Shown piece by piece: positions 2,418-9,106 of a stretch of 64,000 bases of DNA (position 1 is its first letter; every line of letters begins with the position of its first letter). The notes below the pieces were generated by a model that searched no databases, was not told the DNA's origin, and was given only the letters and a program-made list of their open reading frames with translations. The translations under genes were made by a program, and so were the position numbers. Source of the DNA: Escherichia phage RB3; the sequence record KM606994; one strand, given 5' to 3'.

Positions 2418-2447
2418 ATTATACCACATCCTTGTGGTAAAGTAAAC
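2418..2447 (-). promoter_or_regulatory. early promoter (GTTTAC -35, 18-nt spacer, TGGTATAAT -10 on minus strand)
   Basis: Plus strand reads attata-N18-gtaaac; an identical 30-mer recurs at 47011-47040. Confidence 0.6.
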
Positions 2448-4264
2448 TACTGGCTCATCCATTCTTTACGAAGGTCAGCATTATCTCCCATGAGCATTTC
2501 AAAAAGCTCTTTCCAGTTCTCAGGAAGTTTAACAACATCATATACTGGATTTTGAATCATCTCACGATATTCAGATTTTTCCAAAGAGCCAAGTCCCTTA
2601 ATATAACGGATACTATGTTTAGGTAGAGCATCTTTAGCACTCTCATATTCAGCGACTGTATAAAACCATTCTTGTTTTTTACCGACCTGAGCGATGATTA
2701 CAGGAGTTTTGACAAAGCGAATTCGTCCTTGCTCAAACAATTCTGGCCAATTACTAAAAAATCCGAGCAGAGAAGGATAAATGCTTCCTAAACCATCATG
2801 GTCAGCATCAGTCATAATAGCAATATTATGATAATTCAAGTTTTCAGCTTTTTCACCTAGAACTAAACCCGTGATTGCGCAAATATCAAACAGTTCTTTG
2901 TTTTTAAGCATATCAGCATATGACATACCCCAACTGTTGAGAACTTTACCACGCAATGGATAACCACCATGAAGTTCTTTATCACGAACATCAATAAGAT
3001 ATCCGATAGCAGAATCACCCTCAGTCAAGAAAAGAGTAGTGTCAGCATCTTTACCACAAAGATTCGCTTTAATATGTTTATGAACCTTAGCTTTAGAAGC
3101 CTTTTTAGCTGCTTTAGTTTCTGCTGCTTTTTCTGCTGCCAATTTACGAGCTAATGCTGCTTCAATAATTGGCATCAAAATTGCTTCATTATTTAGAATA
3201 GCGCGTGAAATCTTTTTAGCATCAAGTTGAATATGACTACGGATTTCACCAAATGGAGAAGTCAAACGCTCTTTAGTTTGAGAATCAAATCGCATGTTTT
3301 TCATATCACGAACAAACATAACGATAGTCAAACATTCTTTGACACGTGCTTTAGTTACATCAATTTTGAACTTACGTTTGATTTGTGGAATAAGGTCTTC
3401 ACAAATATCATCCATAACACAGTCAATGTGATGGCCACCATTCTTAGTGTGAATGTTATTCACATAAGTTAATTGACGAAATCCATCCGGTGAACGACCA
3501 ACCGCAATAGAACAATTTTCTTGTTCTTGAACAATAGCATGTTCATCATACTGTCGTGCATATTTCTTAAAATTGCCCTGAACCTTTTTACCATTAAAGG
3601 TAAATTGAATATCAGGATAAACAACAGCAAGTGTCTGGAGACGATCCAGTGTAATGTCAAGATAAACTTGGGACAGCTCATTAGTTTCAAATGACATAAA
3701 ATCAGGAATGAAAGTAACACGAGTTCCTTTCCATTTTCCAGGAATATCTTCCCATGATTTATTTTCCATGCCATTTGAACAACGAACTACAATATTATTT
3801 TGACCATCACCAGTTTCACCGACAAACATCACAGAAAAAATGTTTGTCAAACTAGAACCAACACCATTCATACCACCGGTGACGCGTTCTTTATCATCAC
3901 CGAAGTTACCACCTGCTTTTGGAATAGTCCACGCAGCAACAGGACCAGGAATTTCTTCACCTGTAGGTGTTTTAACCATCGCCTGTGGAATACCGCGACC
4001 GTTATCTTCAACTGTTACCTGATTATTTTTAATAGTAACATTAATTTTATTTGCGAATTTAAACTTAGTACGAATACCTTCATCTACTGAGTTATCAATA
4101 ATTTCATCAATAAGCTTAACAAGACCAGGTACATACTGAACACTTTCCCATTTACCAAACAGAAAGCGCTCATGCATTTCATTAGCAGAAGAGCCAATAT
4201 ACATGCCGCTACGCTTTTTGATATGTTCAATATCGCTCAGAATTTTAATTTCATTCTTAATCAT
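2447..4264 (-). CDS. 39: DNA topoisomerase II large subunit, uninterrupted (gene 39 fused with the gene 60 part), 605 aa from first ATG
   Basis: GyrB-like ATPase and TOPRIM motifs (EDNGRGIP, GGMNGVG); ORF-track start is GTG, ATG is codon 2; no interruption, no inserted endonuclease gene. Confidence 0.9.
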   Translation of the reverse strand: MIKNEIKILSDIEHIKKRSGMYIGSSANEMHERFLFGKWESVQYVPGLVKLIDEIIDNSVDEGIRTKFKFANKINVTIKNNQVTVEDNGRGIPQAMVKTPTGEEIPGPVAAWTIPKAGGNFGDDKERVTGGMNGVGSSLTNIFSVMFVGETGDGQNNIVVRCSNGMENKSWEDIPGKWKGTRVTFIPDFMSFETNELSQVYLDITLDRLQTLAVVYPDIQFTFNGKKVQGNFKKYARQYDEHAIVQEQENCSIAVGRSPDGFRQLTYVNNIHTKNGGHHIDCVMDDICEDLIPQIKRKFKIDVTKARVKECLTIVMFVRDMKNMRFDSQTKERLTSPFGEIRSHIQLDAKKISRAILNNEAILMPIIEAALARKLAAEKAAETKAAKKASKAKVHKHIKANLCGKDADTTLFLTEGDSAIGYLIDVRDKELHGGYPLRGKVLNSWGMSYADMLKNKELFDICAITGLVLGEKAENLNYHNIAIMTDADHDGLGSIYPSLLGFFSNWPELFEQGRIRFVKTPVIIAQVGKKQEWFYTVAEYESAKDALPKHSIRYIKGLGSLEKSEYREMIQNPVYDVVKLPENWKELFEMLMGDNADLRKEWMSQ

Positions 4265-4316
4265 CACTTATCCTCGTTTGGTTTCGGGAATATTATACTC
4301 CGGTAATCATAAAGCT

Positions 4317-4334
4317 AAAGGCCCGAAGGCCTTT
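4317..4334 (-). terminator. GC-rich hairpin (GGCC-UUCG-GGCC on minus transcript), possible terminator or RNA stability element
   Basis: Inverted repeat aaaggcc cgaa ggccttt between lipoprotein ORF and gene 39. Confidence 0.4.
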
Positions 4335-4594
4335 TATTTAAAACGAATAGTTGAATCCTTAAAGAACAGCCCAGAACATACTGTTCCTTCTACTTTCTGC
4401 CCGGTAGGTCCAATAGCACGAAATCCAGTATGCTGGAAATCATTTTCAGAGCAACCGAACCAATTATATCCAGTGATTTCAATATTAGTAAAACCACTTG
4501 AAGACAAAACTTTGGTTGCATTATCAGCATCAGTACATCCTACTAAAGACACTACTAATACTAATGCTGCGATAGAACGATTAATATATTTCAT
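4334..4594 (-). CDS. putative lipoprotein (signal peptide plus lipobox LVGC)
   Basis: ORF-track 115-aa ORF trimmed to internal Met MKYINRSIAALVLVVSLVGC. Confidence 0.45.
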   Translation of the reverse strand: MKYINRSIAALVLVVSLVGCTDADNATKVLSSSGFTNIEITGYNWFGCSENDFQHTGFRAIGPTGQKVEGTVCSGLFFKDSTIRFK

Positions 4595-4598
4595 AATT

Positions 4599-4970
4599 TC
4601 ACTTAAATTTAATGGCTTGAAGAAGACTAATAACTCCCAAGCGACTTCTTTCATCTTTAACTGTAAAAGAAAGAGGGTCACCAGACTTCATAGTAATAGT
4701 GCATTCAAAATCAAAACCTTCGGGAACTTCTTCGAATAGGTCAAATTCTTCATCATAAATTAGAACACTACTTTGCAGACTGTGAAGAGTTTTTCCAGCA
4801 TTTCCAGATGCTGTACCAATCATTGTAACATTATGACCTTTCATATCTTCAACGATAAATTCACTAGTCAATATTACAGCATTAATAGAACTATTCCTAT
4901 TACTAGCAGAAAGTAGAAATTTCTGTTCTTCACCTTCGCGAATACGATATTTCTTACCCATTTTAAACAT
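4599..4970 (-). CDS. hypothetical protein (123 aa)
   Basis: ORF track; ATG start; tight packing with neighbours. Confidence 0.45.
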   Translation of the reverse strand: MFKMGKKYRIREGEEQKFLLSASNRNSSINAVILTSEFIVEDMKGHNVTMIGTASGNAGKTLHSLQSSVLIYDEEFDLFEEVPEGFDFECTITMKSGDPLSFTVKDERSRLGVISLLQAIKFK

Positions 4971-4972
4971 AA

Positions 4973-5149
4973 TTATCCCTTAAGTAAGTCGTAAAATCCG
5001 CCATTCACATGCTTAGGAGCAGAAGCCCGACGAGTAGACAAACGATGACATTTAGGGCAAACATCATTTTCTCGTTCAGAAATCTTTTTAATTTTTTCAT
5101 ATTCATGCCCGCAATCTTCAGATTGGCATTTATAATCATACATTGGCAT
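4973..5149 (-). CDS. small zinc-ribbon protein (58 aa, two CxxC pairs)
   Basis: Hand-translated MPMYDYKCQSEDCGHEYEKIKKISERENDVCPKCHRLSTRRASAPKHVNGGFYDLLKG; fills the gap between two track ORFs; not in ORF track (under 60 aa). Confidence 0.45.
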   Translation of the reverse strand: MPMYDYKCQSEDCGHEYEKIKKISERENDVCPKCHRLSTRRASAPKHVNGGFYDLLKG

Positions 5150-5151
5150 AA

Positions 5152-5571
5152 TTATTCCTTAAAATGTGCTTTCAACATCTGATACAAGGACCATGCCTGT
5201 TCATTATTTTCAATAGTAACTTTCATTACCGGGAATTCTGTGAAATCTTCTATTTGTTCTTGCTCTTCCTGCTCTTGTTCTTTAGCATCCTGATATGGAT
5301 TTTCAACTTCATCAAAGAACCCAGCTTCGTTAGTAGAAAGCCAGATAAAGTTTTCGTCAAGGATATCACCATGTGTTGCATATCCAACTGTGCCAGTAGA
5401 TGTCACAATTTTAGTAGAACGACCAAGATGGTCAACATCTAAAATTTTAAAAGGATGCATACCTAAACGGCGTGCATAGATTCCGTTATCAGTATGGTCT
5501 TTAATAAAATTTTCTTGAGCCTGTTTATTTTTAAATTGATACCATTTATTAACTTCAAATTTAATAGCCAT
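5152..5571 (-). CDS. hypothetical acidic protein (139 aa)
   Basis: ORF track; EQEQEEQEQ acidic tract. Confidence 0.45.
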
Positions 5572-5786
5572 TAATAAATTTCCTTCCAGTAAGTTGTGCC
5601 ATCTTCAGTAATTTCACGAAATACACCGTAAATTGGTTGTTTATCACCAACCTTTTCATACACATAAACCGAAGTCAAGTGAGTAAACTTGATGGTGTGT
5701 TCCTTTTGAACTACTACCAAATCTGGATCGAATAATACATCTTCAAATTCGTCATTAGTGCAGTTCTGAACAATTTTACGTTTCAT
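5571..5786 (-). CDS. hypothetical protein (71 aa)
   Basis: ORF track; start/stop overlap with neighbours. Confidence 0.4.
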
Positions 5787-5799
5787 TACAATTTCCTCA

Positions 5800-6069
5800 T
5801 TAATTGAACAGTGGAGCGATACGTTTCAGAAGAGTAGCAGCACCTTTGGCAAATTTTACATCATGAAAAACAGTTTCTTCTTCCGTTACAACACGAGCTT
5901 TAATGTTTTCACAATCCCAATTTTTGCGAACAATCTTCAAAAGCTGCAGTAAATCTTTACATTCAGCAATATCGATAACACATCCACGAGAATCTTCCAT
6001 TATCGCACGATAACCGTAAGCCATACCATAATCATTGAAAGATTGCTCGATGATAATTAAATTTTCCAT
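5800..6069 (-). CDS. hypothetical protein (89 aa from first ATG)
   Basis: Track ORF trimmed to ATG preceded by GGAG within the shared leader cassette. Confidence 0.45.
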   Translation of the reverse strand: MENLIIIEQSFNDYGMAYGYRAIMEDSRGCVIDIAECKDLLQLLKIVRKNWDCENIKARVVTEEETVFHDVKFAKGAATLLKRIAPLFN

Positions 6070-6121
6070 TTTATTCTCCAAGTTTTTCTGTATCAGTAGT
6101 TGATATTGATATAGTACCATA
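6070..6121 (-). promoter_or_regulatory. copy of shared promoter-leader cassette (divergent -35)
   Basis: Transcribed-strand sequence ATGGTACTATATCAATATCAACTACTGATACAG...GGAGAATAAA-ATG closely matches copies at 24392-24458 and 52094-52160. Confidence 0.4.
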
Positions 6122-6175
6122 ATCAACTACTGATGTATATAGTTTTATGAAAAAAATTTTAAACTTTATGCAAAT

Positions 6176-6595
6176 TTATGCTAAAGCTGCTTCGCACCAT
6201 TTTTTAATTTGGAATTCAGGAACTACCATGAACTGGCCTGCAAAAACAATATTGTAGAGCTTGACACCATCTTCTACCCAACGGTCCGAAATAAAACCAG
6301 CGACTTGATTCGTTGTCCATGGAGTTCCATCTGTTGCCGCCGCAATTGTGAATTTATGGTCTTTTACAACTAAAACTGAAGAACAAAGTTTCCATTTAAA
6401 TGCGCTTTCTTCTGGCTCAATGAACTGACTTGAGACATAACCAATGTTACCATCAGCGTCACGAACTTTAACCTCGTTACGACCAAAAACTGGATCACTT
6501 ACAGAAAGAACTTCAACCAGCTTTCCTGCAACTTTAGAACGAGAAGCAACGGATACATATACGTAATCACCAGTAGAGAGATTTACAATATTCAT
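6176..6595 (-). CDS. paralog-family protein (139 aa), member 1 of 3
   Basis: C-terminal motif WVEDGVKLYNIVFAGQF shared with 6605-7123 and 7151-7588. Confidence 0.5.
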   Translation of the reverse strand: MNIVNLSTGDYVYVSVASRSKVAGKLVEVLSVSDPVFGRNEVKVRDADGNIGYVSSQFIEPEESAFKWKLCSSVLVVKDHKFTIAAATDGTPWTTNQVAGFISDRWVEDGVKLYNIVFAGQFMVVPEFQIKKWCEAALA

Positions 6596-6604
6596 AATAA
6601 TTCC

Positions 6605-7123
6605 TTAAGCTTTACGAGGAGAAGCATAACGAGTGATTTCAGATTCTTCAACAACCCGGAAGTCACCTAAGAATACGATATTGTAGAGCTTTTCACCATC
6701 TTCAACCCATTGGTCTGTGATGAAGCCACACATCCTATCAGTTTTACTTGGACCAGCGAAATCATCAATATAATCGAATTCTTCATCAGTTACAAATTCA
6801 ACGCCTTTACACAACGCCCATTTAAATTGTGCATTAGACTCAGTGGATTCAACTTCTTCAACAGAAGCAAAATGAGAGCTAACACGAGTTTCCAGAAATT
6901 TAGGACTTACGTAAGCGTACTGAGTTTCAGTTTTTCCAGAACTAGGAATGATTCGAACTTTAACTTCTTTAACACGACCAGTACCATTAGTACGAAGTCC
7001 TACCACTTCAACTAGACGACCTGCAGCTTTAGAACGAGATGCAGACGATACACGCTTAATTTCACCGATAGTAATCATAATTTTTCTCTCTTTGTTGTTA
7101 AGATTTATACTCCGCAGGACCAT
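6605..7123 (-). CDS. paralog-family protein (172 aa), member 2 of 3
   Basis: Shares ASRSKxAGxLVEV N-terminal and WVEDGEKLYNIVFLGDF C-terminal motifs with 6176-6595. Confidence 0.5.
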   Translation of the reverse strand: MVLRSINLNNKERKIMITIGEIKRVSSASRSKAAGRLVEVVGLRTNGTGRVKEVKVRIIPSSGKTETQYAYVSPKFLETRVSSHFASVEEVESTESNAQFKWALCKGVEFVTDEEFDYIDDFAGPSKTDRMCGFITDQWVEDGEKLYNIVFLGDFRVVEESEITRYASPRKA

Positions 7124-7150
7124 TATACTCTGGTCCCAAGAGTTTGTAAA

Positions 7151-7588
7151 TTAGCTTACACGAACATTAATCACTGCGCTGCGAGGAACTACAGAGTACT
7201 CTCCAGCATGAACTACGTTCAGAAGTTCAACACCATCTTCAATCCACTGATCAGTCACCCATCCACCCACAGGATTCGCGAATGGACGACGAATATAAAC
7301 TGCCTTACACAGCAGATCAGTTGGATCTTCAGGTTTTTCAATTTCTGTCAATAGACTAAAATCTTTTTCATAAATAATAAGCGATGATACCATTCCATAA
7401 TAGTTTCTAATTTCAATATACATCATACCGATAAGAATTCCGCTATTAACACTAATAACAGTAAAAGGATATCCGCCAGTTAAACCAAGAAGTTCACAAA
7501 ACTTATTATGAGCTGTATTAGACAGTACCGAAAAATTCTTAATTTCATCAAATTTTTTCAATTGATAAACAGCATTATTTTTAATCAT
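7151..7588 (-). CDS. paralog-family protein (145 aa), member 3 of 3
   Basis: C-terminal WIEDGVELLNVVHAGEY motif related to the two preceding genes. Confidence 0.45.
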   Translation of the reverse strand: MIKNNAVYQLKKFDEIKNFSVLSNTAHNKFCELLGLTGGYPFTVISVNSGILIGMMYIEIRNYYGMVSSLIIYEKDFSLLTEIEKPEDPTDLLCKAVYIRRPFANPVGGWVTDQWIEDGVELLNVVHAGEYSVVPRSAVINVRVS

Positions 7589-7598
7589 GATTTTCTCT

Positions 7599-8102
7599 TT
7601 AATCTAAAGTAATAAAGCCTTTTAATTCGGCATGTGATTTGCGGAACATTACTTGGTGCCCGCCAATGATAACTTGATCATCTGGAACTTCGTATACAGC
7701 GAGATAAAATCCTTTAGAAGATAATTCTTCACGCTCTTCTCGTGTGAACCATCTCATCATATCATATTCGCTAGCGAAAGCAAAATGATAAAGAGCTATA
7801 AACCATCCTGGAATATAGTGATCTACGCCTACATATTCTTCTTTCTCAAAATTAGTATTAATTGCTATATTAGCATTTTTAACTAATAATTTGTCTTCGT
7901 GTGGAAGAGGAATTCTTTTATTATCATTACTATGATGCATAAAATTAGGTCTGTCATAACCTACGTGTAATAACCACTCTTCGCTCCATGAATCTATTAT
8001 ACTCCTGTATGGCGTTATTTGAACACAAAGATTTCGACGTATTGTTATAGCATCTTCATTATTAAGAATACTAAAAGATGATTCAACACGATAAATTTTC
8101 AT
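7599..8102 (-). CDS. hypothetical protein (167 aa)
   Basis: ORF track; ATG start; early promoter just upstream. Confidence 0.45.
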   Translation of the reverse strand: MKIYRVESSFSILNNEDAITIRRNLCVQITPYRSIIDSWSEEWLLHVGYDRPNFMHHSNDNKRIPLPHEDKLLVKNANIAINTNFEKEEYVGVDHYIPGWFIALYHFAFASEYDMMRWFTREEREELSSKGFYLAVYEVPDDQVIIGGHQVMFRKSHAELKGFITLD

Positions 8103-8129
8103 TTTATTATCCTCAGTAGCTATAGTGTT

Positions 8130-8159
8130 ATAATACCATAACTAACCGAGGAAGTAAAC
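8130..8159 (-). promoter_or_regulatory. early promoter (GTTTAC, 18 nt, TATTAT)
   Basis: Plus strand ataata-N18-gtaaac upstream of ORF 7599-8102. Confidence 0.5.
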
Positions 8160-8165
8160 AACTTT

Positions 8166-8849
8166 TTATCGTTTTGTTGGAAGAGACAGAGGATCGCACT
8201 CTTCCTCTGACGGAGCATCTTCAAGACCCATAGCGTATCGCAAAGCATACTTCATCATCAGGATGTCTTTCGCGCAGTCATGAATAGAATCATGTGCAAC
8301 GAATCCATCTAAAGTTCCTTTTGGAAGAGGACACGTGGTCATATCACGAACAAGCAGAAGTGCTTCAATTCTGGTACGAATATCACGCTGATTCCAGAAT
8401 TTACAAGGTTCTAACTTAAATGTATCAAGCTCATTCTCGGAAACGCCGTTAAGACGTTGAATATCGCGAATGAGATCGACTAAAATTGGAAAATCAAACG
8501 ACATTCCACGGCACCAACCTTGAGATTTCCAAGGATCGATGTTATGTGCATTGATGTAATCATTAAATTTTGCAATACCATCGATAGTGCTTACATCTTC
8601 ATCGGATGGTGCAATATTTTTTCGAGCTTCAGGAGGCTGGTTTTTCCACCATTCGATAGTGCTTTTAGTAAAAAGACGATGTCCTTTTTGGCTTTTTAAA
8701 TCAAATTTGATTTTAATGCCACGTGAAACTAATTCATCAAATGTTTCAACAACTTCTGGGTTAGGGTCAAAGGCAATAACAGCCAAATCAATAACAGCTG
8801 CTTTTTCACCACTTCCCATTGTTTCAAAATCTATAATAAAATCAAACAT
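8166..8849 (-). CDS. dexA: exonuclease A (227 aa)
   Basis: Length and sequence as T4 DexA; DEDD-like exonuclease motifs (FIIDFET); position upstream of dda. Confidence 0.85.
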   Translation of the reverse strand: MFDFIIDFETMGSGEKAAVIDLAVIAFDPNPEVVETFDELVSRGIKIKFDLKSQKGHRLFTKSTIEWWKNQPPEARKNIAPSDEDVSTIDGIAKFNDYINAHNIDPWKSQGWCRGMSFDFPILVDLIRDIQRLNGVSENELDTFKLEPCKFWNQRDIRTRIEALLLVRDMTTCPLPKGTLDGFVAHDSIHDCAKDILMMKYALRYAMGLEDAPSEEECDPLSLPTKR

Positions 8850-9106
8850 TAAACTTTCCTCGCTAAATCGCGAATTTGGCCTACAGTATAGTCTTGAATA
8901 TAAACTTTATTAATAGGCTCATCAATAAATTTTGCCATAGATTCAATATCTTTTTGTATCTCTTCAAGACTGTATACTATCTTTGAAGCTTTTTCACGAA
9001 TAGTAATATTTTCAGGACCTGGATTTTCTTCAATGACAGCTTTAACATTTGTCATAAGAGATTTAAACTGGTACCAACTCAACTCAATCATTAATAATCG
9101 CCTCAT
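8849..9106 (-). CDS. small paralog-family protein (85 aa)
   Basis: ORF track; similar to 9084-9344. Confidence 0.4.
   Translation of the reverse strand: MRRLLMIELSWYQFKSLMTNVKAVIEENPGPENITIREKASKIVYSLEEIQKDIESMAKFIDEPINKVYIQDYTVGQIRDLARKV

Follow-up and report, generated by a model that had tools for sequence, protein, structure and literature searches.

Three small adjacent genes of Escherichia phage RB3 raise the question of whether a nucleic-acid-binding gene has multiplied in place or whether the genes have separate histories. The stretch of DNA analyzed, referred to here as the window, comprises 64 kb (64,000 nucleotides of record KM606994). It corresponds to the first 64 kb of RB5, RB6, RB7, RB9, and RB10, to which it is 100% identical, with matching annotation; in the comparisons below, the genes of the window are represented by RB5. 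A preliminary description had located the three genes between positions 6176 and 7588, where T4 has motB, and had proposed a tandem triplication. All three open reading frames (ORFs) are present on the minus strand at the coordinates given there. The location also agrees, as the gene order in the window (dexA, motB.2, motB.1, motB, motBL, an 89-amino-acid [aa] hypothetical gene, and cef) matches the T4 locus (dexA, motB.2, motB.1, motB, and cef) apart from motBL and the hypothetical gene. The GenBank labels already read MotB-like; "motBL" is the label used here for the second motB-like gene (Table 1).

Table 1. Features of the motB region of the window
Feature	Position	Strand	Description
motB.1	7151..7588	-	145 aa; annotated motB.1 (dexA.-2) in RB5 and RB27
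motB	6605..7078	-	157 aa, RB69-type allele; Pfam motB, 141.6 bits
motBL	6176..6595	-	139 aa, RB69ORF010c ortholog; second, compact MotB paralog
C-terminal domain (CTD)-coding part of motB.1	7154..7330	-	Residues 87-145, EDPTDLLC...GWVTDQWIEDGVELLNVVHAG...; alignments and CTD profile, E 1.1e-27
CTD-coding part of motB	6608..6826	-	FKWALC to C-terminal Ala; CTD profile, E 1.9e-31
CTD-coding part of motBL	6179..6400	-	FKWKLC to C-terminal Ala; CTD profile, E 7.4e-33
Sigma-70-type early promoter (predicted)	7122..7150	-	TTTACA, 17 nt, TATAAT; immediately 3' of the motB.1 stop codon
RNA hairpin	6092..6134	-	13 + 5 base pairs, intergenic, 3' of motBL, without a U tract

For the middle gene, the ORF described at 6605-7123 exists, but its true start lies further downstream. 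The start was placed at 7078 rather than 7123 because 7078 is the annotated start, is preceded by a GAGAG ribosome-binding site, and agrees with the starts of T4 MotB and RB69 MotB, and because the ATG at 7123 falls within the -10 box of the predicted promoter. This promoter fits the consensus at 11 of 12 positions, is the top match within 5000-9000, and belongs to a sequence block common to RB5 and T4; we infer that it drives motB and motBL. The motBL start lies 9 nt past the motB stop codon and has its own ribosome-binding site. To judge from this spacing behind a strong early promoter, the two genes are probably coexpressed. The 115-nt stretch containing the hairpin has a minimum free energy of -24.5 kcal/mol (z-score of -4.65 versus shuffled sequences), and the sequence around it is homologous to that following motB in T4. 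The hairpin may be a 3'-end stabilizer or processing site of the motB-motBL transcript. An Rfam scan of 5000-9000 gave no match.

The common C-terminal block reads GFISDRWVEDGVKLYNIVFAG in MotBL, GFITDQWVEDGEKLYNIVFLG in MotB, and GWVTDQWIEDGVELLNVVHAG in MotB.1. The motif WVEDG-x-KLYN-VF-G, which had been attributed to all three proteins, is literal in MotBL and MotB but takes a variant form in MotB.1. The N-terminal segment ASRSK-AG-LVEV, attributed to two of them, was indeed found in the products of 6176-6595 and 6605-7078 only. Whole-protein scores against the Pfam HMM PF17613 (motB, "Modifier of transcription"; curated gathering cutoff, 25 bits) were 72.1 bits for MotBL, 141.6 bits for MotB (6605-7123 ORF), and 32.7 bits for MotB.1. 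Of the 162 profile positions, 2-158 were matched by MotB, whereas MotB.1 matched only with its CTD (positions 118-153). Both MotB (E 2e-68) and MotBL (E 9.8e-51) matched phrog_1671. By this full-length similarity they are MotB proper, defined by an SRSK-AG-LVEV N-terminal domain and a long-form CTD (FKW...ITDQWVEDG...) ending in Ala. MotB.1 is phrog_2333 (E 6.7e-68) and matched phrog_1671 over its C-terminal part alone.

Pairwise BLASTP comparisons, together with the PF17613 scores, bore out the description of the three proteins as paralogs. MotBL and MotB align over their full length (E 1e-29, 40% identity), and MotB.1 matched MotB with an E value of 4e-11. MotB.1 and MotBL (E 2e-11, 53% identity) align at the C terminus only, over 32 residues, so that the expected alignment beyond the short motif holds for the first pair but not for this one. 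When all six-frame ORFs of the window were scanned with a profile of the CTD, these three genes alone were found (E 7e-33 to 1e-27), and the next best ORF had an E value of 0.097. Against 1.84 billion representative proteins, the profile gave 32 matches at an E value of ≤0.001, about 28 of them genuine; these are all small proteins, and the source-named ones all come from T4-like phages. Four long repeat proteins (P0239, P0243, P0245, and P0246) were rejected as CTD homologs because their resemblance to the motif is partial and confined to short repeats such as GYATEQWVEDKGY; these are nonhomologous repeats. The MotB family (PF17613) is confined to T4-like phages. Its CTD has the core G-[FWY]-[IV]-[ST]-D-[QR]-W-[VI]-E-D-G-x-[KE]-L-[YL]-N-[IV]-V and is joined to at least three types of N-terminal domain.

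MotB consists of a KOW/SH3-like N-terminal domain (SRSKAAG-LVEV), an acidic linker, and the long-form CTD. MotBL has a shortened version of the same N-terminal domain and the long-form CTD, without the linker and without a 6-residue hairpin segment present in MotB. MotB.1 combines an LSm/SH3-like N-terminal domain with a short-form CTD of about 55 residues, which is all that it shares with the other two. A weak resemblance in a MAFFT alignment (EIKxxSxxS...E..GL) had suggested that the MotB and MotB.1 N-terminal domains might be homologous. This was rejected, since hhalign detected no homology between them (probability of 0.1%) and the structural models place a helix in MotB.1 at the site of a strand in MotBL. 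By contrast, hhalign did relate the two kinds of N-terminal domain seen among MotB.1 proteins (probability of 91.5%). An origin of the MotB N-terminal domain and CTD as internal duplicates was likewise discarded for lack of signal (hhalign probability of 1.1%). Because MotB.1 shares the CTD alone and its N-terminal domain is unrelated, its link to the other two is domain-level paralogy or shuffling.

Sequence comparison with related phages indicates where the motB-motBL pair came from. Between RB5 and T4, amino acid identity is 100% for dexA, 97% for cef, and 91% for motB.2 but only 47% for motB. Between RB5 and RB69, it is 89% for motB and 87% for motBL versus 68% for dexA and 42% for motB.2, and motBL is 92% identical to the JS09 copy. 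[quoted passage not shown] On this evidence, motB and motBL form a linked RB69/Mosigvirus-type two-gene cassette within a T4-like backbone, with breakpoints located by blastn. Orthologs of motBL with at least 80% identity over the whole 139-aa query were found in 206 of 772 phage records, from two genera, and RB5-type motB was found in 200. Among the records listed, every RB5-type one has two matching places and every T4-type one has a single place; the RB5/RB69-type allele thus comes as a two-gene unit in every record listed.

These comparisons contradict the proposal that a single small nucleic-acid-binding gene was triplicated in tandem, recently and in this lineage only, and then diversified in place; we consider this highly improbable. 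It would account for genes that are adjacent, on the same strand, similar in size, and equipped with a common C-terminal block. However, the paralogs are only 30 to 47% identical, and MotB and MotB.1 have nonhomologous N-terminal domains. In addition, the Mosigvirus phages RB69 and JS09 carry the trio in identical order, with motB and motBL orthologs at 84 to 92% identity, and the motBL orthologs stand apart as a discrete group, since no phage record has its best match between 60% and 80% identity. Since MotB and MotBL are 40 to 47% identical to each other and motBL orthologs in RB69 and JS09 are 87 to 92% identical, the duplication is old rather than local.

T4 and about 73% of related genomes have no motBL, and the gene lacks the linker and hairpin segment, which could also suggest a redundant copy that has no function of its own and is decaying into a pseudogene. 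This is hardly credible, as motBL has a dN/dS of 0.07 to 0.17 at a dS of 0.48 to 0.70, is kept at full length in the 206 records, has its own ribosome-binding site, and gives a confident structural model (mean pLDDT of 82.6). Purifying selection acts on all three genes (dN/dS of 0.07 to 0.23). A derivation of T4 motB as a motB-motBL fusion was also considered, as the 3' end of T4 motB and its downstream spacer align with those of RB5 motBL. It was rejected as a general explanation because T4 MotB, RB5 MotB, and RB5 MotBL are about equidistant in both domains (44 to 53%). Hybrid motB-family genes do exist on metagenome contigs from at least three sequencing runs. The T4 reference motB.1 is cut by a 1-nt insertion within the W-I-E-D-G motif. 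This frameshift is not present in 11 other T4 genome records. Window MotB.1 and intact T4 MotB.1 are 80% identical.

The N-terminal domain of MotB has been predicted previously as a KOW motif of the NusG-Spt5-type SH3-like class, and a published HHpred prediction assigned the CTD to the OB-fold of the cold-shock DNA-binding type (eIF5A C-terminal domain/CspA). Here, AlphaFold2 models of MotBL and MotB.1 (mean pLDDT of 82.6 and 83.8) each consist of two all-beta domains; in MotB.1, a helix is followed by strands 42-49, 55-61, 67-73, and 80-83. The top Foldseek matches of both models were the 53BP1 tandem Tudor, Spt5 KOW6-7, tandem Agenet, and ribosomal protein S4e, with E values of 2e-4 to 1e-2 and a probability of ~1.0 for the tandem-barrel matches. 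The similarity is moderate (TM of 0.3 to 0.44, 12 to 18% identity, and root mean square deviation [rmsd] of 7 to 13 Å), these values referring to whole, flexibly linked two-domain models. The Tudor matches (E 2e-4, TM of 0.35 to 0.44, 14 to 18% identity) and the Spt5 KOW6-7 match (E 6e-3) hold at the fold level only. The 50 best PDB matches that Foldseek gave for each whole-protein model included no OB-fold, cold-shock-domain, or eIF5A entry. The predicted fold looks most like tandem Tudor/KOW barrels, and the published OB-fold was not recovered.

At the sequence level, Pfam KOW (PF00467) gave no match at an E value of ≤1 in any of the three proteins, and the PDB yielded nothing even at an E value of ≤10, whether the query was the MotB sequence or a family profile of MotB or MotB.1. 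MotBL has a weak SH3_3 match (E 0.079), and three distant family members (P0240, P0244, and P0247) have an N terminus, GKxVKVIxGKHxGxxGxxIG, that is KOW-like by eye only. The proteins were not filed as Tudor proteins, the resemblance being one of predicted fold class only. Against BFVD, MotB.1 matched GoF of phage VR7 (E 6e-3, TM of 0.40/0.47, rmsd of 3.9) in an alignment of 89 columns, roughly as long as its N-terminal domain. The GoF/MotB.1/Frd.2 family has an LSm-like N-terminal domain with a bent five-stranded antiparallel sheet (PMC12152347), and of the three proteins only MotB.1 belongs to it, as the T4 MotB.1 ortholog (80% identity) and with modest structural support.

T4 MotB is an early, abundant, tight nonspecific DNA binder that is toxic on overexpression, copurifies with H-NS/StpA, and alters H-NS-DNA complexes (PMC6070864, PMC7827196). 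It is basic (pI 9.2, net charge of +5.8), whereas MotB, MotBL, and MotB.1 of the window are all acidic (pI ~5.4). Thus, the earlier label of nucleic-acid-binding proteins applies to T4 MotB, a nonspecific DNA binder (PMC6070864), but is an extrapolation for the acidic trio. DNA binding and H-NS remodeling having been demonstrated for the basic T4 protein only, their extension to the window is by analogy. For MotB this transfer is weak because it shares 47% identity with T4 MotB and is net acidic, and a similar role for MotBL or MotB.1 might be proposed by the same analogy. Deletion of T4 motB.1 had no burst-size phenotype (PMC12152347).

The charge pattern bears on another reading, which is possible but on balance unlikely. 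The CTD might be an SH3/Tudor-like protein-binding or oligomerization module rather than a DNA-binding OB-fold, with the N-terminal domains giving specificity (a basic KOW-like domain for DNA and an LSm-like domain for RNA) and with the acidic RB69-type MotB and MotBL jointly forming a split version of the basic T4 MotB. The Foldseek results, with tandem Tudor, KOW, and Agenet matches for both models and neither OB-fold nor eIF5A in the top 50, argue for it, as do the acidic and aromatic invariant CTD core (D-x-W-x-E-D/E-G) and the pairing of a single kind of CTD with three or more kinds of N-terminal domain. The strict linkage of motB and motBL, 9 nt apart, and the complementary charges are also consistent with it: the N-terminal domain is at +3.6 in RB5 MotB and -3.5 in MotBL, and the CTD is at -7.2 in RB5 MotB, -3.1 in MotB.1, and +0.8 in MotBL. 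However, contact between T4 MotB and H-NS in the absence of DNA was undetectable (PMC7827196), the T4 MotB CTD is mildly basic (+1.8), and the TM-scores of the fold matches are low. A fuller version, to which we give somewhat less credence still, has the CTD as a Tudor/SH3-like module for protein recognition or hetero-oligomerization instead of an OB-fold DNA binder, the acidic MotB and MotBL of RB69-type phages as a heteromeric, subfunctionalized counterpart of the basic T4 MotB, and MotB.1 as a protein whose CTD recruits its LSm-like domain, taken to bind RNA, to the host target of the pair. If true, MotB.1 and MotB plus MotBL would share a host target such as the H-NS/StpA nucleoprotein complex.

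The explanation that we prefer, and regard as very likely, is a MotB-family trio with an RB69-type motB-motBL cassette and a T4 MotB-like role. The trio is motB.1, motB, and motBL of an RB5-group Tequatrovirus phage, all of the MotB family (PF17613), each encoding a 15- to 18-kDa protein predicted to be all-beta with two domains. The shared element is a predicted C-terminal beta-barrel of about 55 to 75 residues. MotB and MotBL also have the KOW/SH3-like N-terminal domain (SRSK-AG-LVEV) in common, which in MotB.1 is replaced by an unrelated LSm/SH3-like domain of the GoF/Frd.2 type. The cassette takes the place of a single T4-type motB in about one-quarter of sequenced T-even genomes and moves by homologous recombination, and recombination within the family also yields the hybrid genes. 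The analysis shows that the genes belong to this family, how their domains are arranged, that their ancestry is mosaic, and that they evolve under purifying selection. Expression and biochemical function would follow those of T4 MotB by homology, the most likely role being that of abundant early nucleoid-associated proteins that alter H-NS/StpA-DNA complexes and modestly raise burst size.

In general, the finding is an ordinary one, a rediscovery of the MotB/MotB.1 family of T-even phages from raw sequence. The shared CTD and the presence of more than one motB copy in RB69 (two in all) were published in 2021 (PMC7827196); the family is genuine but known, and the present analysis adds only some evolutionary detail. 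The characterized T4 MotB stands for only one of two motB alleles that differ strongly, with 47% identity and opposite net charge. Also of use for work on early host takeover by T4 is that the models resemble tandem SH3/Tudor/KOW barrels more than a KOW domain followed by an OB-fold.

Compared with known systems, the models resemble, as two tandem five-stranded beta-barrels, the 53BP1 tandem Tudor, Spt5/DSIF KOW6-KOW7, tandem Agenet, and UHRF1 TTD, with no sequence-level relationship in the Pfam KOW and PDB profile searches. The T4 reference MotB.1 (119 aa, 13.8 kDa), as found in databases and recent work, is probably a frameshift artifact; the true T4 protein would have 143 aa with the conserved domain intact, and window MotB.1 has 145 aa with a full CTD. 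T4 MotB (NP_049626; PF17613) resembles window MotB in its locus between motB.1 and cef, two-domain layout, upstream early promoter, SRSKAAG-LVEV N-terminal motif, CTD core ITDQWVEDGxKLYN-VF-G, and terminal Ala. Window MotB differs in being only 47% identical, in having another acidic linker, and in being accompanied by a second copy, motBL. The closest parallel in arrangement is RB69 MotB with RB69ORF010c ("similar to motB"), and JS09, in which the order, the 9-nt spacing, and the upstream motB.1 are the same; in RB69, however, motB.2 lies downstream of the pair, whereas in the window it lies upstream of motB.1.

The three neighboring genes motB.1, motB, and motBL (a second motB-like gene, ortholog of RB69ORF010c) are a real but already known trio of motB-family genes, since a shared C-terminal domain (CTD) and multiple copies have been reported (PMC7827196) and the GenBank labels of the window genes agree with that published description. 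According to the same report, MotB and MotB.1 have a common CTD and different N-terminal domains, duplication of one of the two genes probably gave rise to the other, and two motB copies accompany motB.1 in some phages, such as RB69 (Patterson-West et al. 2021, PMC7827196). The C-terminal block in all three genes and the N-terminal ASRSK-AG-LVEV segment were found as the preliminary description had stated. In BLASTP comparisons, MotBL matched MotB over its full length (1e-29, 40% identity), and MotB.1 matched MotB (4e-11) and, within 32 C-terminal residues only, MotBL (2e-11); by these alignments, the similarity is well above chance. All three proteins passed the Pfam motB (PF17613) gathering score, and they were the only matches to a CTD profile among the 1,191 six-frame open reading frames (ORFs) of the window.

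The region from 5100 to 8900 was 100% identical to RB5, RB6, RB7, RB9, and RB10 and 99.9% identical to RB27; all six phages belong to Tequatrovirus (T4 group) and share the coordinates of the window. Every gene from dexA to goF lies on the minus strand. In T4, the order is dexA, motB.2, motB.1, motB, and cef, without motBL or the 89-amino-acid (aa) gene. The latter had no counterpart at the equivalent place in T4 or RB69 and no Pfam match, and it is a separate indel relative to T4. The start of motB was corrected to 7078, as the ATG at 7123 falls inside the TATAAT box of a predicted promoter that is also kept in T4. In the spacer 3' of motBL, which is homologous to the spacer 3' of T4 motB, a very stable hairpin was predicted (minimum free energy of -24.5 kcal/mol over a 115-nt stretch; z-score of -4.65). 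It had no Rfam match and was not followed by a U tract, and it may be an mRNA 3'-end stabilizer or processing site.

Features of the motB region and related loci, with amino-acid identities of RB5 proteins to T4 and to RB69 (JS09 where named)
Feature	Position	Strand	Remarks	RB5 vs T4	RB5 vs RB69
dexA	8166-8849	-	First in transcription order	100%	68%
motB.2	7599-8102	-	After dexA	91%	42%
motB.1	7151-7588	-	145 aa	80%	JS09, 55%
Predicted promoter	7150-7122	-	TTTACA / 17 nt / TATAAT; 11/12 consensus positions
motB	6605-7078	-	157 aa	47%	89%
motBL	6176-6595	-	139 aa; labeled "MotB-like transcriptional regulator"	Absent	87%; JS09, 92%
Hairpin	6092-6134	-	13+5 bp; spacer 3' of motBL
Hypothetical gene	5800-6069	-	89 aa; phrog_3720; between motBL and cef
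cef	5571-5786	-	After the 89-aa gene	97%	69%
goF	5152-5571	-	Last gene listed	87%	79%
Hybrid single motB	L007 3001-3492		Metagenomic contig
Hybrid single motB	L008 2199-2690		Metagenomic contig
Hybrid single motB	L009 37-528		Metagenomic contig
Hybrid single motB	L010 1373-1894		Metagenomic contig
T4 motB.1 insertion	L003 (NC_000866) 4292-4651		Site near 4305; window equivalent ~7240
motB.1, RB69 vs JS09	L005 (AY303349) 1482-1978; L006 1479-1973		RB69; JS09

Elsewhere in the window, the topoisomerase II large subunit is encoded by a single unsplit 606-aa ORF (2447-4267, minus strand; annotated gene 39 start at 4264). It is of the "60plus39" type found in RB69; the T4 counterpart is divided between genes 39 and 60. 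Between 39.1 and 39.2 lies a 123-aa gene (4599-4970, minus strand) that T4 lacks.

The paralogs are real, as the preliminary description held, but its reading of them as a tandem triplication was only partly borne out: motB and motBL are an old cassette rather than the product of local triplication, and MotB.1 shares the CTD alone. RB69 and JS09 have the same motB.1-motB-motBL order as RB5, also with a 9-nt gap between motB and motBL. The DNA match of RB5 to T4 runs leftwards from 6891 into and past the 5' part of motB and resumes at 6060-6280, an interval that holds the motBL 3' end and the downstream spacer; RB5 6171-7327 is 83% identical to RB69 DNA. In 772 GenBank phage records, a motBL ortholog with at least 80% identity was present in 206, and no record had its best match between 60% and 80%. 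RB5-type motB (at least 60% identity) was found in 200 records; among the records listed, those with RB5-type motB had two MotB-like places each and those with T4-type motB had one. Together, the identities, gene order, and one-versus-two-places pattern argue that the RB69-type motB+motBL pair is a linked two-gene allele, alternative to a single T4-type motB. The dN/dS ratios (motBL, 0.07 to 0.17; motB, 0.22; motB.1, 0.23) show purifying selection on all three genes.

At least three sequencing runs yielded metagenomic contigs with hybrid motB genes. In these genes, a T4-type or RB69-type N-terminal part is joined to a motBL-type CTD at an FKWKLC junction, and the hybrid is the sole motB gene at its locus, flanked by motB.1 and by the 89-aa gene or cef. 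One hybrid protein (P0028; five contigs, at least three sequencing runs) combines a T4-type N-terminal domain and linker with a motBL-type CTD whose final few residues are T4-like; another (P0029) combines an RB69-type N-terminal domain with a motBL-type CTD. Such hybrids suggest that recombination or gene conversion between MotB-family members at this junction is continuing.

MotB and MotBL can be aligned end to end, invariably with Ala as the last residue, but a segment of 6 residues in the N-terminal domain and the entire interdomain linker of MotB are missing from MotBL. What MotB.1 has in common with MotB is the CTD alone, in a short form without a hairpin of approximately 15 residues. 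Profile-profile comparison detected no similarity between the MotB.1 and MotB N-terminal domains (probability of 0.1%), and related the former to those of 165- to 250-aa MotB.1 variants, including the common 180-aa type (probability of 91.5%). When 1.84 billion representative proteins were searched with the CTD profile, 32 matches were obtained, approximately 28 of them genuine. The genuine matches were small proteins throughout, and every one of them with a named source came from a T4-like phage. Some paired an N-terminal domain of the MotB type with a CTD of the MotB.1 type, and the N terminus of others resembled KOW, judged by eye alone. By these matches, the CTD is a module of narrow distribution fused to several distinct N-terminal domains. 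Two long repeat proteins resembling phage fiber proteins (P0243, 862 aa; P0245, 601 aa) contain several copies of "SLSGYATEQWVE[DG]KGYLTEHQSL", similar to the MotB CTD core (GYITDQWVEDGVKLY); they were rejected as CTD homologs, the short motif being judged a coincidence.

AlphaFold2 models of MotBL and MotB.1, built from family alignments, were confident (mean pLDDT of 82.6 and 83.8) and had two all-beta domains each. In Foldseek searches of the PDB, the two models shared their top matches, namely the 53BP1 tandem Tudor (E values of 2e-4 and 1.5e-3), Spt5 KOW6-7, tandem Agenet, and ribosomal protein S4e, and UHRF1 TTD was among those of MotBL. The TM-scores of the whole two-domain models were just 0.3 to 0.44, low values being expected because the domains are flexibly linked. 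The CTD had been assigned to the OB-fold by HHpred (PMC7827196), a fold not recovered among the top PDB matches of either whole model; an SH3-like barrel is the probable, though not settled, fold class. Against viral models, MotB.1 matched family members, a KOW-domain protein, and GoF, in agreement with the published similarity of the N-terminal domain of MotB.1 to that of GoF (PMC12152347).

[quoted passage not shown] It alters the H-NS footprint, derepresses some of the H-NS regulon, and doubles the burst size (PMC6070864; PMC7827196). Deletion of T4 motB.1 had no burst-size phenotype (PMC12152347). A similar general role is most likely for RB5 MotB, MotBL, and MotB.1, but we infer it from T4 MotB. 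T4 MotB is basic (pI 9.2, +5.8), and the RB5 proteins are acidic: MotB (pI 5.4; N-terminal domain, +3.6; CTD, -7.2), MotBL (pI 5.4; N-terminal domain, -3.5; CTD, +0.8), and MotB.1 (pI 5.35). In their domain charges, MotB and MotBL complement each other. The CTD may be a protein-binding or oligomerization module, a reading compatible with four observations: the charges given here, the invariant core of acidic and aromatic residues (D-x-W-x-E-D-G), the Tudor/KOW resemblance of the models, and the strict linkage of motB to motBL.

In the T4 reference (AF158101/NC_000866), motB.1 contains a single additional G (ATTGGAAGAT versus ATTGAAGAT in other genomes), which cuts MotB.1 to 119 aa ("13.8 kDa") within the W-I-E-D-G motif; the conserved domain is still encoded in the +1 frame 3' of the insertion. 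The extra base is private to this record, being absent from 11 other T4 genome records, RB55, and RB59, which encode a 143-aa MotB.1 with an intact CTD (annotated as such in one). On contigs, the intact 143-aa form outnumbered the truncated form by 256 to 2. The insertion is probably a sequencing error or a private mutation of a single stock, and it goes unmentioned in the two papers discussing MotB.1. In RB69, the 132-aa motB.1 and the 29-aa ORF012c (the "Category 3" peptide of Patterson-West 2021) correspond to a single intact 164-aa motB.1 gene in JS09; two insertions of 1 nt each within the CTD-coding part separate the RB69 pieces. The RB69 defect is similar in kind to that of the T4 reference motB.1 and affects the same domain.
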